Source: Minisyncoccia bacterium
GTDB lineage: Bacteria; Patescibacteriota; Minisyncoccia; UBA6257; 2-01-FULL-56-20
Assembly: GCA_049997875.1 (NCBI GenBank)
Contig: JBEKRC010000004.1
Span: 8,928-72,927 of the forward strand
Direction: 5' to 3'
Length of the DNA: 64,000 nucleotides
Shown: positions 38,862 to 52,991 of the stretch, piece by piece
Layout: each line of letters starts with the position of its first letter
Numbering within the stretch: position 1 is the first letter of the stretch
Program-made: the position numbers and the translations under genes
The notes under the pieces: generated by a model
Database searches by the model: none
Seen by the model: the letters and a program-made list of their open reading frames with translations, nothing else
Told to the model about the DNA's origin: nothing

Positions 38862-41282
38862 TTATACTTCCTTCTTTCTCTCCCCCACCGAATGACCGCC
38901 GAAGCGGCTGCGGAGCGCGGAGAGGATTCGACCCGTATAGCTCGGCGCTTTTCGGGAACGCATGCGGAATTTGAACGCATCTTCTATCGCCGGCAGTTTC
39001 ACGCGCCACTTGCGGCCGGTCTTTAGGGTCCATTCACCCTCGCCGGTCGCGGCGACCGTGCCAGATACCGCATGTAGCTCCTTGCCATAAATGCGGAACG
39101 CGTCTTCCATCCAGCCAACGAGGCGCGATTCAATGACGCTGCCACGGTTGTATACGCGCGCAATCTTCTCAAGATCAAACTTGAATGGCGATTTTTTCAT
39201 GAGCGCGAAACCTTCCGCCAAGGACTGCATCATGCCGTATTCAATGCCGTTGTGGACCATCTTTACGAAATGGCCTGCGCCCGCATCGCCGAAATACGCG
39301 TAGCCCAAGGGCACGGAGAGGTCGGCGAAGAGCGGCTCCAGATATTCAAATGTTTTGCGGTCGCCGCCGATCATGAGCGAGCCGCCGTAGCGCGCGCCGT
39401 GCGGGCCGCCCGAGAAGCCCACATCCACAAACCGAATGCCGCGCTTGCCGAGAAGCTTCGCCCGCCGCACGCTGTCCTCAAAGAACGAATTGCCGGCGTC
39501 TATCACGATGTCGCCTTTTTGGAGGTGCGTCACAATGCCATTCCTGCTCCGTCCCGCGCCGAAGAGAAATTCGTCCACTCCTTTTCCGGCGGTGATCATG
39601 AGCCAGATCACGCGCGGCGAATGTCTTCGCGGCACCGCGAGCTCCGCCGCGAGTTCTGCGAGAGAATACGCCGCCTCAAAACCTTCTCCCTCCAGCTGTT
39701 GCAAGGACTCCGGCGAGCGATTGGCTGCGATGACGCGCCATCCTTTATCGCGCAGCTGCCATGCCACGTTCGCACCCATCTTCCCGAGCCCGAAAATGCC
39801 TATTTCCTTCGGAAGCGCCGAGGTCCCATTTCTTTCCGCCGCGTCATCAAATGCCGCCGCTTCGGCGACAATCTTACGGCCGCCCGGCGCGTAGTGCCGC
39901 AGCGGGACCAAGTTCTTTTTCCACGCAATGATGAACGGGTCTATGAACTTCCACATCGCGGCGATCTCCTCGCTTGAGACAAAGAGCGTCTGGTCGCCCG
40001 CGATGCAGTCCAAAATCAGTTTTTCGTATTCCTCGGTATATTGAGCATGAAGAACGGTTTTCCGAAAATCAAAATTAAATGTCCGTTCTTCAAACTCAAA
40101 CTTGTGTCCCGGCTTTTTGGAATGAAACTTGATGGTGATCCCCTCGGTCGGTTCAAGGTGAATGAAAATGCGGTTATGATGATGTTCGTTCCCTATGCAA
40201 AGGCAGGGCTGTTCGTGGCGCAGCACAATCTCTATCTCTTTGATCGGCTCGCCGAGGCGCTTCCCGCTTTCCATGACGAGCGGCATTCCCTCCCACCGCG
40301 CGCCGGTGAGGAATCCTTTGATACGAAAGTACGTTTCGGTTCTTGAACGGGGAGAAACGCCGGGTACGGAACGGTAGCCGTCGTATTGCGCGCGGAACGA
40401 GTTCTTTGCGGCTTCGCGGGGCGTCTGAATGACGAGGCGCCTCAAAAGCTCCGCGCGGAGCGGACGGATCGCTTGGGCGTCGTACCGCGCGGGCCGTTCC
40501 ATGGCAACGAGCGCGAGCATCTGCAGAAGATGGTTCTGTCCCACATCTTGTAGAGCGCCCACGTGGTCGTAGAATGGGCCGCGTCCCTCGACGCCGATTT
40601 TCTCAAACAGGCGGATGTGCACGCGCGCTATCGTACGGCTCGTCCATTCGTTTTCAAAAAGATCGTTCGCGAACCGGAACATCAGAATATTCTGCAACAT
40701 CTCCTTCGCCAGATAATGGTCTATCCGATACACTTGTTCCTCCCGAAAGAGCTTTGTCAGTTGGGCATCAAGCGCCTTCGCACTCTTCTCATTGTTGCCG
40801 AACGGCTTTTCCACAATTACGCGCGTCCATCCCTCGTTCGGACCGCAGCCGTCGGTCAGATGGCTGCGGTGCAGGTGGGCAAGGATGAGCGAATAAAACT
40901 GCGGCGGGACCGAAAGATAAAAAAGTTTGTTCGCGCACATGCCCCACGCATCGTCAATATTTTTCAAAAGATCGTTGAGCGCCAGGTAGTCCTCCGGAGA
41001 ATCAAACGCCAACCGATGGTACGCGGCAAGGTCAAGGAACGATCGTACGGTTGCGGCGGGCGCGTGCGATGTCCTCTCTTTAAGAATGGTGCGGAGGTGC
41101 GTACGGAGATCGTCGTCGCCCCACGCGCGCCTTGAAACGCCTACGAGTTTGAACTTTGGCGGCAGCTGCTTTTTTGCATGCAAATTAAAAAGCGCCGGCA
41201 CGATCTTTTTCGCCATAAGGTCGCCCGTGGCGCCCAAGACCACGAGAATGGTAGGAATGGTTTGTTTCCGCTCATCTATCAT
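38862..41282 (-). CDS. zwf: Fusion protein: glucose-6-phosphate dehydrogenase (N-terminal ~480 aa) + 6-phosphogluconate dehydrogenase-like NAD(P)-binding enzyme (C-terminal ~300 aa)
   Basis: N-terminal GATGDLMAKKIVPALF and Zwf active-site segment RIDHYLAKE. The C-terminal half has the 6PGDH Rossmann GIFGLGKMGANVAWQL plus ...GDAGAGHFVKMVHNGIEYGMMQ; 806 aa. Confidence 0.8.
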   Translation of the reverse strand: MIDERKQTIPTILVVLGATGDLMAKKIVPALFNLHAKKQLPPKFKLVGVSRRAWGDDDLRTHLRTILKERTSHAPAATVRSFLDLAAYHRLAFDSPEDYLALNDLLKNIDDAWGMCANKLFYLSVPPQFYSLILAHLHRSHLTDGCGPNEGWTRVIVEKPFGNNEKSAKALDAQLTKLFREEQVYRIDHYLAKEMLQNILMFRFANDLFENEWTSRTIARVHIRLFEKIGVEGRGPFYDHVGALQDVGQNHLLQMLALVAMERPARYDAQAIRPLRAELLRRLVIQTPREAAKNSFRAQYDGYRSVPGVSPRSRTETYFRIKGFLTGARWEGMPLVMESGKRLGEPIKEIEIVLRHEQPCLCIGNEHHHNRIFIHLEPTEGITIKFHSKKPGHKFEFEERTFNFDFRKTVLHAQYTEEYEKLILDCIAGDQTLFVSSEEIAAMWKFIDPFIIAWKKNLVPLRHYAPGGRKIVAEAAAFDDAAERNGTSALPKEIGIFGLGKMGANVAWQLRDKGWRVIAANRSPESLQQLEGEGFEAAYSLAELAAELAVPRRHSPRVIWLMITAGKGVDEFLFGAGRSRNGIVTHLQKGDIVIDAGNSFFEDSVRRAKLLGKRGIRFVDVGFSGGPHGARYGGSLMIGGDRKTFEYLEPLFADLSVPLGYAYFGDAGAGHFVKMVHNGIEYGMMQSLAEGFALMKKSPFKFDLEKIARVYNRGSVIESRLVGWMEDAFRIYGKELHAVSGTVAATGEGEWTLKTGRKWRVKLPAIEDAFKFRMRSRKAPSYTGRILSALRSRFGGHSVGERKKEV

Positions 41283-41325: not shown

Positions 41326-41952
41326 ATGCGAAAAGCACTCACCAAATCATTCTACGACAGGCCGACGCTTGCGGTCGCGAAGACGCTCCTCGGCAAGTAC
41401 CTCGTGCGACGCTATCGCGGGAAAACGATCGCGCTCATGGTGACCGAGGTGGAAGCATACGACGGACCGCGCGATATGGCCTCGCACGCGAGCCGCGGCC
41501 GCACGCCGCGCAACCACCTGATGTTCGGCGAGGCCGGCCGTTTCTATGTGTATTTCACTTACGGGATGCACTGGCTTGCGAATATCGTGACGGGGCCGGG
41601 CGGCTATCCCGCAGCCGTCCTCATCCGCGCCGGTGTCTCTAAAGATCCTCGGACAGGCGCGCTGCGTGAGGTGCACGGCCCCGCACGCGTCACAAAATTT
41701 TTACACATCGGCACCGCTGAGAACGGCAAACACGCTTCAAAAAGAAACGGCCTCTGGTTTGAGGACCGAAGCGTAATAATTCCCCGCAAAGCAATCGTCG
41801 CCCGAAAGCGCGTCGGCGTGGATTACGCCGGTCCCGTCTGGGCAAACAAAAAATATAACTTCGCGTTACGGGACTCCACGCTTCGCCGCATGCTTATTTT
41901 TTCTGCTCGTCCTTCTTCCCGTGCTTCCCGTCCTCGCAGTCGCACTCGCTAA
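41326..41952 (+). CDS. mpg: DNA-3-methyladenine glycosylase (Mpg/AAG family)
   Basis: FYDRPTLAVAKTLLGKYLV...VEAYDGPRDMASHASRGRTPRN..MFGEAGRFYVYFTYGMHW matches the family. The R/S-rich C-terminal tail overlaps a convergent small ORF and may not be translated. Confidence 0.8.
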   Translation: MRKALTKSFYDRPTLAVAKTLLGKYLVRRYRGKTIALMVTEVEAYDGPRDMASHASRGRTPRNHLMFGEAGRFYVYFTYGMHWLANIVTGPGGYPAAVLIRAGVSKDPRTGALREVHGPARVTKFLHIGTAENGKHASKRNGLWFEDRSVIIPRKAIVARKRVGVDYAGPVWANKKYNFALRDSTLRRMLIFSARPSSRASRPRSRTR

Positions 41953-43293: not shown

Positions 43294-43596
43294 TTAAGAT
43301 TCGTCTAGGATGATCCTCTTCTTGAACCGTCCCCGCTCTTCCGCTTTTTTCTCTCCCATCTTCACTATTCTTTTCCAATTAAACTTTTTGTAATCCGCAA
43401 TGGCACCAATTACTTCGAGAAGATCGGCGAATTCCTCGGGACTTTCGTTATGCTCAAATTCTTTGATCTCTTCATACAGCTTCTCCTTCAACTTCTTCCA
43501 ATATTCCGCCCGAGTTGCCACATGATAAACCGGCTTCCCGCCCCTTTTGCGGATGTGTTCGGGGATCTTGTCGCGTACGAGCTTGTTATATTTCAT
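43294..43596 (-). CDS. MazG-like nucleotide pyrophosphohydrolase (small, all-alpha)
   Basis: KLVRDKIPE ... EExxE ... EEFADLLEV pattern of small MazG/PRA-PH-like NTP-PPases; AT-rich. Confidence 0.5.
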   Translation of the reverse strand: MKYNKLVRDKIPEHIRKRGGKPVYHVATRAEYWKKLKEKLYEEIKEFEHNESPEEFADLLEVIGAIADYKKFNWKRIVKMGEKKAEERGRFKKRIILDES

Positions 43597-43720: not shown

Positions 43721-45388
43721 ATGGAGCGGGAAACGCGGGCGTGTGAGGACTGCAAAAACCAGTTCGCAATTGAGCCGGAGGATTTTGATTTTTATAAGAA
43801 AATGGGGGCTCAACCTCCAAGCATCTGTCCGAACTGTCGCTTTAAATGGCGAGCGCTCTATCGCAACGAACGTACTTTGTATAACTCCAGGTGCGGTCTA
43901 TGCGGGAAAACCATCATCTCCGCGTATAATCCCCGATCACCATACACGGCGTACTGCACGAAGTGCTTTGATTCAGACAATTGGGACCGATTCTCGTTCA
44001 ACGTCGATTTCGATTTCAAAAAGCCATTCTTTGAGCAACTCGGAGAACTTTTCAGAAAAACACCAAAGCAAGCCCTCTACATCACCCACAGCCCCACGAA
44101 CGTAAACAGCGAGTACATCAACTACGCCGGGCCATATGAAAAAAACTGCTATCTCGTCTCCAACTCCGGCGAAGGAGAAGAGGTGCTCTACTCCCGTGGT
44201 ATGCGGCATTGTAAATATGCTTCGGACCTTTACTACGCAACGTTTTTGGAAGATTGCTACGAATGCATCAATGGCCATCATTCCTCGCGCGTGTATCACG
44301 GGCAAAACGTAAGCGGCAGCATTGACTGCGCCTATGTCGCGAATTGCAGCGGGTGCACCCACTGCTTCGGGTGCGTGAATTTACGCAATCAAAAATATCA
44401 CTTTTTCAACGAACAACTTTCCAGGGAAGAATACGAGAGGAAGGTGCGTGAGATCTTGGGGAGTTACTCAAAAATGCAAGAGGCCGAGCAACGCTTTGAG
44501 CAATTTGCACTACAATTTCCGCAACGCGAGAATCAAAATCTGAAATCGGTGAATTGCATCGGTGACTATCTCACTGAATCGAAAAATACGAAGTATTCGT
44601 TCGAAGACACGAACTGTGAAGATTGCAAGCATGCCTTTTTCAGCAAGAATATGAAGGACTCTTACGACACCACTGGCTACGGATACAGTAGCGAGCTATT
44701 GCTCTCCGTCGCGGCGGCGGGATACTCCAACCGCGTTATTGGATCGGCGCTCATCTCCGCCAGCCACGATATTGATTACTCACTCGCGCTCAATACCTGC
44801 AATAACTGCATCGGCTGCGACGGCCTCAAAAACGCGGAATTTTGTTTGTTGAACAAGAAATATCCAGAAGTGGAATATAAGCGCATCAGAGAACACATTA
44901 TTAAAGAATTGAAGGGAAAGAACAGTTATGGTCTCCCGTTGCCTCCGGAGATCGGTCTCTTCGCCTACAACGAAACGATTGGGCAAGACAATTTGCCAAT
45001 GACCAAGGAAGAAGCGCTCGCACAGGGACTTGGATGGCAGGACGACGTGCAAACGACAAAGGGAAAGGAAACTATGCCGCTCGAAAAGATTCCGGACCAT
45101 ATCCGTGACGTTTCCGAATCTATTATCAAAGAAATTCTTGCATGTGCGGAGTGCGGCAGAAATTACCGCATCATTCCGCAGGAGCTACTCCTCTATAAAC
45201 GGCTTATCATCCCAATACCGCGAAAATGTTTCAACTGCCGTCACATGGCGAGGATCAAGAAGCGGGGACCGTTTACCCTCTACGATCGTCGGTGTGGTCG
45301 GTGCGGAAAAGATATCAAAACAAACTTTGCGCCGGAGAGGCCCGAAATCGTCTATTGTGAGCAGTGTTATCAGGCAGAGGTGATATAA
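43721..45388 (+). CDS. Large cysteine-rich protein (~40 Cys) with a duplicated ~80-aa double-zinc-ribbon module at both termini and a Cys/His-rich core
   Basis: The N-terminal module (CEDC..FAIEPEDFDFYKKM..CPNCR..LYNSRCGLCGK..YCTKCF) is repeated at the C-terminus (CAEC..YRIIPQELLLYKRL..CFNCR..LYDRRCGRCGK..YCEQCY). The core has repeated C-x2-C-x-G-C-x2-L-x-N motifs (NCSGCTHCFGCVNLRN / CNNCIGCDGLKN); AT-rich islet; it is the only plus-strand gene in a minus-strand block. Confidence 0.55.
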   Translation: MERETRACEDCKNQFAIEPEDFDFYKKMGAQPPSICPNCRFKWRALYRNERTLYNSRCGLCGKTIISAYNPRSPYTAYCTKCFDSDNWDRFSFNVDFDFKKPFFEQLGELFRKTPKQALYITHSPTNVNSEYINYAGPYEKNCYLVSNSGEGEEVLYSRGMRHCKYASDLYYATFLEDCYECINGHHSSRVYHGQNVSGSIDCAYVANCSGCTHCFGCVNLRNQKYHFFNEQLSREEYERKVREILGSYSKMQEAEQRFEQFALQFPQRENQNLKSVNCIGDYLTESKNTKYSFEDTNCEDCKHAFFSKNMKDSYDTTGYGYSSELLLSVAAAGYSNRVIGSALISASHDIDYSLALNTCNNCIGCDGLKNAEFCLLNKKYPEVEYKRIREHIIKELKGKNSYGLPLPPEIGLFAYNETIGQDNLPMTKEEALAQGLGWQDDVQTTKGKETMPLEKIPDHIRDVSESIIKEILACAECGRNYRIIPQELLLYKRLIIPIPRKCFNCRHMARIKKRGPFTLYDRRCGRCGKDIKTNFAPERPEIVYCEQCYQAEVI

Positions 45389-51096: not shown

Positions 51097-51858
51097 TTAT
51101 GCGACCTTTTCAATTGCGTGCTCGTCAAAATCTTCGCCGTGCGAAACCGCTATGGCGACAAACACGAGGGTAAGCATCCCGAAGATGAACGCCTGGATGA
51201 ACCCGACGAAAATCTCCAAAAACATAAATGGCAAGGGCGCCAGGTACGGTACCAAAAAGGCCATGATGGCCAGAAGCACCTCCCCCGCAAAAATGTTCCC
51301 GAAGAGCCGGAATGAGAACGAAATAATCTTAGCAAATTCGGAGACAAGTTCAAGGATGCCCACGAAAAAGTCTATGGGCCCCTTGAAGTTGAAGAAAACC
51401 GAAAGGCGTGCCTTTAATCCAACGGCTGCTACGCCGAACGCGTTCGCGAAGGTGACCGCGATGAGCGCGAGCGCTAGCGTAAAGTTAAGGTCGCTCGCGG
51501 GCGAACGCAGGAGCGGGATCGCCCCGCCCCCCTGACGGACCACGATAGAACTCACTCCCGGGAAAAGCCCGAGCCAGTTTGAGCACAAAATGAAAAAGAA
51601 GACCGTGAACACGAGCGGCAGATATTTTTCCGCCTTTTTACGGCTGCCGAGCACGGAACTCATGAGGCCGAGGGCGCCCTCAAGGAGAATCTCTATGACG
51701 CCCTGTGCATTGCCGGGAACAAAAGAAAGTTTGCGCCGCAACGCGATCGCCACCACGGTCAAAAGCACAAAGACAAGCGCGGCCAGGAGGACCGCATTCG
51801 TCACCGGGAAGCTCCCGATGCGAAAAATCTCTTCCGCGCGAAGCGAAATTTGCAGCAT
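51097..51858 (-). CDS. atpB: ATP synthase Fo subunit a
   Basis: Five or six TM helices and the conserved Arg-containing helix (SFSFRLFGNIFAGE). Confidence 0.9.
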   Translation of the reverse strand: MLQISLRAEEIFRIGSFPVTNAVLLAALVFVLLTVVAIALRRKLSFVPGNAQGVIEILLEGALGLMSSVLGSRKKAEKYLPLVFTVFFFILCSNWLGLFPGVSSIVVRQGGGAIPLLRSPASDLNFTLALALIAVTFANAFGVAAVGLKARLSVFFNFKGPIDFFVGILELVSEFAKIISFSFRLFGNIFAGEVLLAIMAFLVPYLAPLPFMFLEIFVGFIQAFIFGMLTLVFVAIAVSHGEDFDEHAIEKVA

Positions 51859-52053
51859 ACGAGGGAATTATAGCAAAAAATTGCGGAATGTAAAAATCCC
51901 GTTGTTTAACGATTTTTTAATAAAACCCGCTTTCTAGTTGTTTTTGCTTTGAGCGTGCTTGTATATTTCCGATATCTAAATTGTGACGCTGTCCGGTATG
52001 CCGGCCGCCCCGGCCGATTCCCCACTTTCGCATAGTTTTTCATTTTATCAAAA

Positions 52054-52446
52054 CTATAAGTTTTGGATCAAAAAACCACTAAGCACTTTCAAGTCTTTTT
52101 TGTCTGGGTCGTAGTAATAGGTTTTTATACCAACGGATCGAGCGCTTTCTACTGCCTTCTGATCGTGTTCAAAATAAATGACGTCGTCCTTGCTTAAGCC
52201 AAAGTGTCCGAGCATCATTGCATAATATTTCGGGTCAGTTTTTTCCGGGTTGTGCTTCAATGTAAAAACTTCGTAGGGCATTTTATCCAAACCAAACTCT
52301 TTGAATTTCTCGTCATCAGCCCCTGTCAAAATAATTTTTCTATTCGGGAAAGTTTCAAGCAAATCATGCATTTCCTTAAAGATCTTGAAAGCGCCTCCTT
52401 CCTTTATTACAAAAGCGTGAACTGCATCAACGAGAATTGTTTTCAT
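52054..52446 (-). CDS. Small HAD-like hydrolase-fold protein (uncertain)
   Basis: 130 aa, AT-rich; N-terminal ILVDAVHAF and GADD resemble HAD motifs I/IV but DxD is not conserved. Confidence 0.35.
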   Translation of the reverse strand: MKTILVDAVHAFVIKEGGAFKIFKEMHDLLETFPNRKIILTGADDEKFKEFGLDKMPYEVFTLKHNPEKTDPKYYAMMLGHFGLSKDDVIYFEHDQKAVESARSVGIKTYYYDPDKKDLKVLSGFLIQNL

Positions 52447-52520
52447 AATTTGATAGTAACAAATCTTACGCTATCTCACTACTCACCATTTCGAAAGAGG
52501 ACGAGCCGCGCCCTACAAAC

Positions 52521-52991
52521 TCAACCAAGCTTTGGCAACGCAAAGGGACTCTTCAGATATTCGCGGTACAGGCAAATGTTTTCCATATGATCAAACGCAA
52601 TCTCACTTTCAGGAGGCAATGCATTCAAGGAGAACCATCGCAATTCACTGTTTTCATCGTCGGGGACGCCGGTTTGTCCCAATGCGGTGCAATAATGTAC
52701 AAAAGAGATATTTTGCCTGTCTTCCCCGGGACGATGAGGACTATCAACGATGCGCAGAAGAACGAGGTCTTTCACCTTGTACCCGGTTTCTTCAAACACC
52801 TCGCGCACCACCGCTTCCTGAATGGTTTCGCCAAGCTCCATATAGCCACCAACGAGCGCCCATTTGCCACCCTCTAAAAACTTTTGCGCGCGCTTTACAA
52901 GTAGAATCTTGTCATTTTTGAGAACGAGGGCATCAATCACTGCATGACGCAACGAAGCCTTGCCCCCGTCTTCAAATATACAAGTAATCAT
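52521..52991 (-). CDS. NUDIX hydrolase
   Basis: Nudix box GGKWALVGGYMELGETIQEAVVREVFEETG. Confidence 0.85.
   Translation of the reverse strand: MITCIFEDGGKASLRHAVIDALVLKNDKILLVKRAQKFLEGGKWALVGGYMELGETIQEAVVREVFEETGYKVKDLVLLRIVDSPHRPGEDRQNISFVHYCTALGQTGVPDDENSELRWFSLNALPPESEIAFDHMENICLYREYLKSPFALPKLG

Follow-up and report, generated by a model that had tools for sequence, protein, structure and literature searches.

The stretch of DNA analysed here, hereafter the window, comprises 64,000 nucleotides of a Minisyncoccia bacterium (Patescibacteriota; assembly GCA_049997875.1, contig JBEKRC010000004.1, positions 8,928 to 72,927 of the forward strand). It carries a gene for a protein of 555 amino acids (aa) that an original prediction, made from the sequence, had singled out as rich in Cys and could not assign to a known family. 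The predicted open reading frame (ORF) proved to be real, and the encoded protein contains 12 His and 32 Cys residues (5.8%), fewer Cys than the approximately 40 first reported. Based on conservation, profile comparisons and AlphaFold2 (AF2) models, the protein consists of a finger pair, two solenoid halves, a linker with the signature Y-N-E/G-x2-W and a second finger pair, which is the full-length architecture of the subfamily that we refer to as orthogroup 0. The features are listed in Table 1, together with the predicted local distance difference test score (pLDDT) and the isoelectric point (pI) of the linker.

Table 1. Features of the gene for the 555-aa protein, with positions in the window.
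Feature	Position	Strand	Basis or remark
Complete ORF, 555 aa plus stop codon	43721..45388	+	Family member, orthogroup 0
N-terminal double-finger module, residues 3-86	43727..43978	+	Cys spacing, profile matches, AF2 model
Conserved connector, residues 87-125 (W88-D, PFF-x-Q, VPK), helix at 103-113	43979..44095	+	Conservation, models
Beta-solenoid half 1, approximately residues 126-232, plus helical hairpin 235-263	44096..44515	+	
Beta-solenoid half 2, approximately residues 266-380, plus helix 383-399	44516..44920	+	Paralogous to half 1; strands in second AF2 model
Acidic linker, most conserved part, residues 401-469	44921..45127	+	Conservation, pLDDT 93-98, pI 4.6
C-terminal double-finger module, residues 470-553	45128..45379	+	Cys spacing, hhalign, Pfam/NCBIfam scores

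The two end modules are paralogous, as had been proposed. They share 36% identity over 84 aa in BLASTP (pairwise E 6e-21), and a formal profile-profile comparison with hhalign, starting from an alignment of 38 orthologues, gave a probability of 99.6% (E 4.5e-24). The predicted 8 Cys of each module were found as four CxxC knuckles that form two fingers: finger A with the spacing C-x2-C-x24-C-x2-C (C8/C11/C36/C39 at the N terminus, C475/C478/C503/C506 at the C terminus) and finger B with C-x2-C-x17-C-x2-C (C58/C61/C79/C82 and C525/C528/C546/C549). All 16 of these Cys are invariant or nearly so in the orthologue alignment. Across the ends the profile of finger A matches finger A and that of finger B matches finger B, and A has no match to B. 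AF2 modelling puts the first knuckle of each finger in a beta-hairpin and the second at the N terminus of a helix (pLDDT 93-96), a placement that indicates treble-clef-type fingers rather than classical ribbons. Of the proposed two Zn(Cys4) ribbons per end, the two Cys4 sites were therefore retained and the ribbon fold was not. Judged by Pfam and NCBIfam profiles, both fingers appear to be divergent members or relatives of existing domain families, finger B of zf_Tbcl_2/TIGR04272 and finger A of zf_Tbcl. Both modules are mildly basic, with a pI of 8.4 (N-terminal) and 9.4 (C-terminal).

The part between the modules, originally described as a Cys/His-rich multi-metal core, was instead found to consist of two homologous narrow beta-solenoid halves in which Cys and His are mostly variable. 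With hhalign, residues 140-246 and 287-394 aligned with a probability of 98.5% (E 1.6e-15), and both halves show a periodicity of 12 residues with harmonics at 24 and 36 residues. A C-x-G-C-x2-L-x-N motif closes each half and leads into a long helix; it reads C-F-G-C-V-N-L-R-N in half 1 and C-x-G-C-D-G-L-K-N in half 2. The repeated core unit of the original prediction is present in this form, as CTHCFGCVNLRNQKYHFFN at about residue 212 and CNNCIGCDGLKNAEFCLLN at about residue 360. A first AF2 model based on 38 sequences reached a pLDDT of 79.6, and a second one based on 104 sequences, paralogues included, a pLDDT of 88.3 and a predicted template modelling score of 0.89. In structure comparison the modelled core resembled generic beta-solenoids only. 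Positions W88, F103, Q106 and P115 of the connector are kept in orthologues and paralogues. The linker positions G404, P408, F-A-Y416-N417-E418, G436-x2-W439, T451 and I-P-D459-x-I461 are invariant or nearly so in alignments A1 and A4, and these are kept in the paralogues as well. The pI of the whole protein is 7.1, the linker and the core being acidic. Residues 87-469, about 70% of the protein, lie outside every Pfam and NCBIfam model and every solved structure. No hydrophobic segment was found in the 555-aa protein, and this lack predicts a cytoplasmic location.

The core retains just two conserved Cys pairs in the orthologues, C215/C218 and C363/C366, and the orthologue alignments show no conserved His. 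As most core Cys are variable and the His are unconserved, the estimate of eight or more metal sites comes down to four conserved Cys4 sites and at most one putative extra site. The positions kept across orthologues and paralogues together are Cys, aromatic residues, Gly/Pro and Asn, with no conserved set of His, Ser or Lys. In a set of 148 full-length proteins, each representing a cluster at 50% identity, the N-terminal fingers A and B were intact in 135 and 84 and the C-terminal fingers A and B in 100 and 143, respectively. One relative (P0122) aligns with the window protein from end to end at 44% identity; 13 of its 16 finger Cys are gone, whereas the other conserved positions are kept. The zinc ligands are thus dispensable in natural relatives. 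Since loss of fingers is common and this relative retains the remaining conserved positions, the zinc that the Cys pattern leads us to expect would have a structural, fold-stabilising role rather than a redox, storage or catalytic one. In another relative (P0267) most knuckle Cys are absent and an N-terminal GNAT acetyltransferase domain is present (PF00583, E 3e-8). An iron-sulphur site formed by the run C209-x2-C212-x2-C215-x2-C218 was considered for orthogroup 0 and rejected, as C209 and C212 vary in the orthologues. The equivalents of these four Cys are conserved to at least 80% in the paralogues. Many paralogues (alignment A3, for example L005:2438-4213) have the C-terminal finger B interrupted by an insertion that brings additional Cys and a His-x-His pair, and in the same paralogues solenoid half 1 ends in a well-conserved C-x2-C-x2-C-x2-C run. 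The insertion and the Cys run may form additional metal sites, without a counterpart in the orthogroup of the window protein.

A word-indexed search returned 3,294 matches, the best 120 of which are all full-length (51-73% identity, 95-100% coverage) and unnamed; one of these 120 (P0001) is the identical sequence. The named sources among the best 120 are Jorgensen-, Lipton-, Nomura-, Ryan- and Staskawiczbacteria and Paceibacterota. When 1.84 billion representatives were searched exhaustively with a profile, 4,862 matched at E 1e-3; 2,005, or approximately 2,000 clusters at 50% identity, reached E 1e-30 or better. With a paralogue profile at least 7,993 clusters (90% identity) were matched at E 1e-10, out of 8,000 scored candidates. 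Relatives are encoded in at least 585 stretches of the GTDB species genomes, all of which lie in metagenome-assembled genomes (MAGs) of Patescibacteria type. All family members are annotated as hypothetical, and the named sources are Patescibacteria, mostly of Parcubacteria/Paceibacteria lineages. One contig labelled Burkholderiales (L067, JAMPXW010000001.1) encodes two family members at a guanine-plus-cytosine (GC) content of 31%; it is probably a Patescibacteria contig that was mis-binned into a Burkholderiales MAG. Average-linkage clustering resolved subfamilies that single-linkage clustering failed to separate, and in this way orthogroup 0 was found to have 40 members of approximately 556 aa in 40 loci, one per locus, the window protein included. 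The window protein is the best-conserved, slowest-evolving member of a Patescibacteria-specific family, and its gene is an ordinary, vertically inherited one.

The original prediction could not assign the protein to a known family, and no characterised family covering it was found in Pfam, NCBIfam or the PDB sequences. Whole-protein searches of Pfam, NCBIfam, PADLOC, PHROGs and the PDB sequences gave sub-threshold finger matches only. Against PHROGs there was a weak match at the level of a finger (E 0.0018), and none of the PADLOC-DB 2.0 profile families matched. Relatives were looked for in IMG/VR viral contigs, GenBank/INPHARED phages and PLSDB plasmids, with no match. Similarly, searches of the literature on the finger families, on Cys-rich paralogues of the candidate phyla radiation and on Parcubacteria zinc ribbons returned nothing on this family.

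Gene neighbourhoods were counted over 80 related loci, which are phylogenetically related to each other. In 49 of the 80 loci at least two family copies lie in the same direction, with one to seven paralogues within about 13 kb. The densest loci hold up to 8 copies per 13 kb, and a single contig (L072 plus L005) approximately 15 copies in 28 kb. The spacing between copies, which is approximate, has a median of 22 nt and is 30 nt or less in 58% of the cases; on a Jorgensenbacteria contig (L087) seven successive genes overlap by 4 nt each. Adjacent copies have a median identity of only 38%, and several other orthogroups recur across genomes. Such old, recurrent orthogroups in tight arrays suggest an ancient set of paralogues that would be produced together, unlike a fast-evolving variable repertoire. 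Short family matches in the related loci were found to be truncated genes at locus ends or frameshifts. Small genes for CTP_transf_like nucleotidyltransferases were observed inside paralogue arrays (L086:4810-5238 and L087:13119-13553).

The commonest neighbour from outside the family encodes a soluble P-loop ATPase with matches to TrwB_AAD_bind, T4SS-DNA_transf, TraG-D_C and DUF87 and with TrwB as its best PDB match. We counted 43 genes for such VirD4/TrwB/HerA-like ATPases in 26 of the 80 loci, all of them co-directional with the family genes and 21 immediately adjacent. They fall into a long and a short subtype (L022:4201-6084, L016:1815-4091, L022:8685-10172 and 40 others), neither of which has a membrane anchor. 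A recurring gene order is PaaX-like (minus strand), dnaK, long ATPase, orthogroup-0 gene with or without paralogues, rsmE (minus strand), short ATPase and dnaJ. In at least six loci the long ATPase gene stops 1-5 nt upstream of the orthogroup-0 gene or overlaps it, and in the closest relative (73% identity, L085) a paralogue and such an ATPase lie downstream. The long ATPase (600-826 aa) has a CxxC-x17-CxxC finger of its own, which scored 45.8 bits against PF23477 (cutoff 27) and 47.6 bits against TIGR04272 (cutoff 36), and a low-complexity tail that ends in E[IV]PEDVL[KR][KR]ILE. It also matches phrog_5156, which has no assigned function, at E 1e-63. The short ATPase ends in EAEP[ML]I. A motif IP[DE]...[KR]IL that is shared by the linker of the 555-aa protein and the long-ATPase tail was too weak and was not used as evidence. 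If a genome of about 0.8 Mb is taken to hold about two such genes, the co-location in 26 of 80 loci is an approximately ten-fold excess; a rough binomial estimate gave 8e-19, a value that is indicative only, as the loci are not phylogenetically independent. CutA1 genes were repeatedly seen beside an array-associated ATPase or a leucyl aminopeptidase (L086:13794-14099, L087:557-862, L012:4169-4477). A survey of 2025 (PMC12102498) counted 5,713 VirD4-type homologues across 2,918 genomes of Patescibacteria, of which just 148 lie near virB4, and leaves their role open.

The copy in the window is solitary, with neither a paralogue nor a VirD4-like ATPase encoded there. The gene is divergent from a gene for a 100-aa protein (43294-43596, minus strand) and convergent with a Pro_CA_2-like gene, beyond which lies an F-type ATP synthase operon. 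The 100-aa protein had been taken for a MazG-like enzyme and gave no significant match in Pfam, NCBIfam or the PDB sequences, whereas the predicted MGMT-domain neighbour was confirmed (PF01035, E 2e-29). These nucleic-acid-handling neighbours are not conserved beside relatives in other genomes. Contrary to the original claim, the gene is not the sole plus-strand gene of its block, since a methylpurine-DNA glycosylase gene (41326-41952) lies on the same strand. The supposed AT-rich islet of much lower GC content is a modest decrease, 0.483 compared to 0.529 for the window. GC content at the third codon position (GC3) is 0.59, within the range of the neighbours (0.53-0.71), and the decrease sits mostly at codon position 1 (0.47), indicating that it reflects mainly the amino-acid composition. 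A second low-GC stretch at 51750-52750 (GC 0.39-0.44) covers a gene for a 130-aa protein (52054-52446, minus strand); low-GC genes are thus scattered in this genome and not peculiar to the gene studied here. Neither integrase or transposase genes nor repeats or tRNA were found beside the gene in the window, and a promoter and terminator scan around it performed no better than on shuffled sequence. The identical protein with the same neighbours was found on 15 metagenomic contigs from several samples. Elsewhere in the window, an 806-aa protein (38862-41282, minus strand) is a fusion of a glucose-6-phosphate dehydrogenase (G6PD_N and G6PD_C) with an NAD_binding_2/6PGD region of 6-phosphogluconate dehydrogenase type, which places steps one and three of the oxidative pentose-phosphate pathway in a single chain.

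Our preferred explanation, held tentatively and at less than an even chance, is that the protein is a cytoplasmic scaffold or adaptor that works with its paralogues and with orphan VirD4-like ATPases; it would not be an enzyme, because the conserved positions hold no set of His, Ser or Lys. Two tandem narrow beta-solenoids would form a rigid core, capped at each end by homologous zinc-stabilised treble-clef finger pairs. The finger modules and the conserved acidic linker could serve as docking surfaces and the solenoids as spacers or binding faces. The protein would act in hetero-oligomeric sets with its paralogues, and it would serve the orphan VirD4/TrwB-like ATPases, which are soluble and hexameric, as adaptor or regulator or be their client; the CxxC-x17-CxxC finger that both proteins have in common and the docking-type C-terminal peptide of the long ATPase may be the coupling elements. 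Several points weigh against this explanation. Physical contact with paralogues or ATPases is deduced from anatomy and gene neighbourhood, and the solitary copy in the window, which lacks both partners, shows that the association is not obligatory at the level of the locus. As the 80 loci are related, the enrichment statistic overstates their independence, and the adjacency of the ATPases and DnaK/DnaJ may partly be one inherited syntenic block. Moreover, the mildly basic finger modules would fit nucleic-acid binding equally well.

That last point leads to the possible, though rather doubtful, alternative that the fingers bind DNA or RNA and help a TrwB/FtsK-like translocation of DNA during uptake, segregation or processing in these nucleotide-scavenging bacteria. 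The pI of the modules would fit, as would the Arg/Lys-rich helix after each second knuckle and the matches of the ATPases to TrwB_AAD_bind, T4SS-DNA_transf and CedD-type DNA translocases. The MGMT-domain and methylpurine-glycosylase genes near the window copy also seemed to favour it, but these repair neighbours are not kept in other genomes. The protein as a whole is neutral, with an acidic linker and core; no characterised nucleic-acid-binding domain was matched, the best solved-structure match being a LIM finger, which serves protein interaction (E 0.011); and a need for two to more than eight paralogues per array is not obviously explained by such a role. It is improbable that the arrays are instead a repertoire of substrates for VirD4-like coupling proteins, exported from the cell or delivered into a host like type IV effectors. 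The genes do adjoin ATPases of coupling-protein type, effectors typically come in multi-copy tandem repertoires, and type IV secretion systems with unknown cargo are widespread in Patescibacteria (PMC12102498). However, true coupling proteins have an N-terminal membrane anchor, which is missing from these ATPases, and in the same source VirD4-type genes are seldom near virB4. Orthogroup 0, at 51-73% identity across lineages, is far more conserved than usual effectors, tightly folded zinc fingers at both ends disfavour translocation, and overlapping genes suggest a fixed stoichiometry rather than alternative cargoes.

A role in catalysis or in metal or redox chemistry is very unlikely, whether as a beta-helix acyltransferase-like or GNAT-associated enzyme, as a Cys-rich zinc store or as a redox-switch chaperone of Hsp33/DnaJ type. 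Neither Pfam Hexapep nor DnaJ_CXXCXGXG was matched and there is no conserved catalytic set of His or Asp. All other conserved positions persist in relatives that lack the finger Cys, which makes metal chemistry dispensable, and approximately 16-20 conserved Cys in 555 aa would provide a small storage capacity. Least credible of all is the idea of the original prediction, a gene of a mobile or anti-phage defence element, which had been suggested by strand isolation and lower GC. Apart from the slight decrease in GC, it could draw on the weak PADLOC HerA/mad8 matches and the strong phrog_5156 match of the partner-type ATPase and on a DNA methylase and a Fic gene near one related locus. Against this stand the lack of matches of the 555-aa protein in viral contigs, phages, plasmids and PADLOC, the GC3 inside the range of the neighbours and the absence of flanking mobile-element genes, repeats and tRNA. 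In addition, no locus holds more than one copy of the orthogroup, its conservation across many lineages is high, and the locus is identical on contigs of several samples. Of the predicted nucleic-acid-binding or scaffold protein of a mobile or defence element, the scaffold role is the preferred one and nucleic-acid binding a less likely one, and the mobile or defence setting was not supported.

Much of bacterial diversity belongs to the Patescibacteria, yet no role is known for most of the genes that are specific to their lineages. The 555-aa protein represents one of the largest uncharacterised families in this group. Its architecture is absent from Pfam, NCBIfam and the PDB; the novelty lies in the combination and in the gene system, the building blocks (treble-clef fingers and a beta-solenoid) being ordinary. 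As far as the searched libraries and the searchable literature show, the family and its organisation in arrays with ATPases are undescribed, and overlapping arrays of ancient paralogues are an unusual genomic organisation. The scaffold explanation could be extended to a Patescibacteria-specific cytoplasmic machine, which we consider a speculative and rather unlikely proposal. Here paralogous finger-capped solenoid subunits, produced in fixed ratio by overlapping genes, would form a heteromeric rod or filament, or a set of clients, that the ATPases as hexameric motors would build, remodel or thread, docking through the shared finger and the C-terminal peptides. If true, it would explain what thousands of 'exapted' coupling-protein homologues do in Patescibacteria. 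The recurrent pairing with ATPases bears on a question raised in the literature, namely the purpose of thousands of coupling-protein homologues far from type IV secretion genes, and makes it approachable by concrete binding and assembly experiments.

Compared to known systems, one of the closest likenesses is that of finger B (58-82 and 525-549) to the CxxC-x17-CxxC domain (TIGR04272, PF23477 zf_Tbcl_2), with which it shares the exact x17 spacing and the signature P-x-x-VYC-x-x-C. Residues 520-552 of the 555-aa protein scored 26.4 bits against PF23477 (cutoff 27), and the score against TIGR04272 was 21.1 bits (cutoff 36). PF23477 was matched by 20 of 24 isolated orthologue modules (E up to 0.1, best E 7.8e-8), and several homologues carry a precomputed match to it. 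In small proteins of Methanosarcina mazei this domain binds zinc, as determined by inductively coupled plasma mass spectrometry (PMC12704099). The known zf_Tbcl_2/TIGR04272 examples stand alone in approximately 40-60 aa and have no assigned function, whereas the 555-aa protein contains it as one finger among four. Finger A resembles PF13451 (zf_Tbcl) in its CxxC hairpin knuckle, followed by F-x-I...D-x-x-F-Y-x-K and by P-x-x-C-x-x-C-R at the start of a helix. Its scores stayed below the gathering score (15.0 bits for the full protein and 19.3 for the isolated module, cutoff 24), and 15 of the 24 orthologue modules gave sub-cutoff matches, the best at E 4.8e-6. Finger A would therefore be at best a divergent relative of zf_Tbcl, a family that itself has no assigned function.

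A further likeness, by analogy and not by membership, is to the LIM scaffold proteins (CRP/MLP), in which two consecutive Cys-rich treble-clef fingers form a protein-docking module. The best solved-structure match of the module profile, a marginal one, is the LIM finger of CRP mentioned above, and weak Pfam LIM matches were obtained for 11 of the 24 modules (best E 0.0034). LIM fingers are contiguous, with a spacer of 2 residues and His/Asp ligands, whereas in the 555-aa protein all ligands are Cys and a helix and loop of 18 residues lie between the fingers (C39 to C58). LIM membership was rejected on spacing and on the ligand pattern C-x2-C-x16-23-H-x2-C, x2, C-x2-C-x16-21-C-x2-(C/H/D). The Cys-rich domain of DnaJ with its four CxxCxGxG repeats was likewise rejected, as the knuckles here read CEDC, CPNC, CGLCGK and CTKC and the corresponding Pfam match is lacking. 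In its fold class the core falls among narrow beta-solenoids such as curli CsgA (8c50), the ice-binding proteins of spruce budworm and ryegrass (1m8n, 3ult) and the left-handed beta-helix acyltransferases. Membership of the hexapeptide acyltransferases or gamma-carbonic anhydrases was rejected, since besides the missing Hexapep match the periodicity is 12 residues rather than that of 18-residue coils built from [LIV]-G-x4 repeats, and no His is conserved where these enzymes have catalytic ones. The available text of PMC12102498 links no zinc-finger or solenoid family to the coupling-protein-like ATPases, the word 'zinc' having 0 occurrences in it. The neighbour ATPases fit the type IV coupling protein homologues that are described in that text as encoded away from virB4 in Patescibacteria, and those seen here combine a soluble form, without membrane anchor, with a zf_Tbcl_2 finger or conserved C-terminal peptides.

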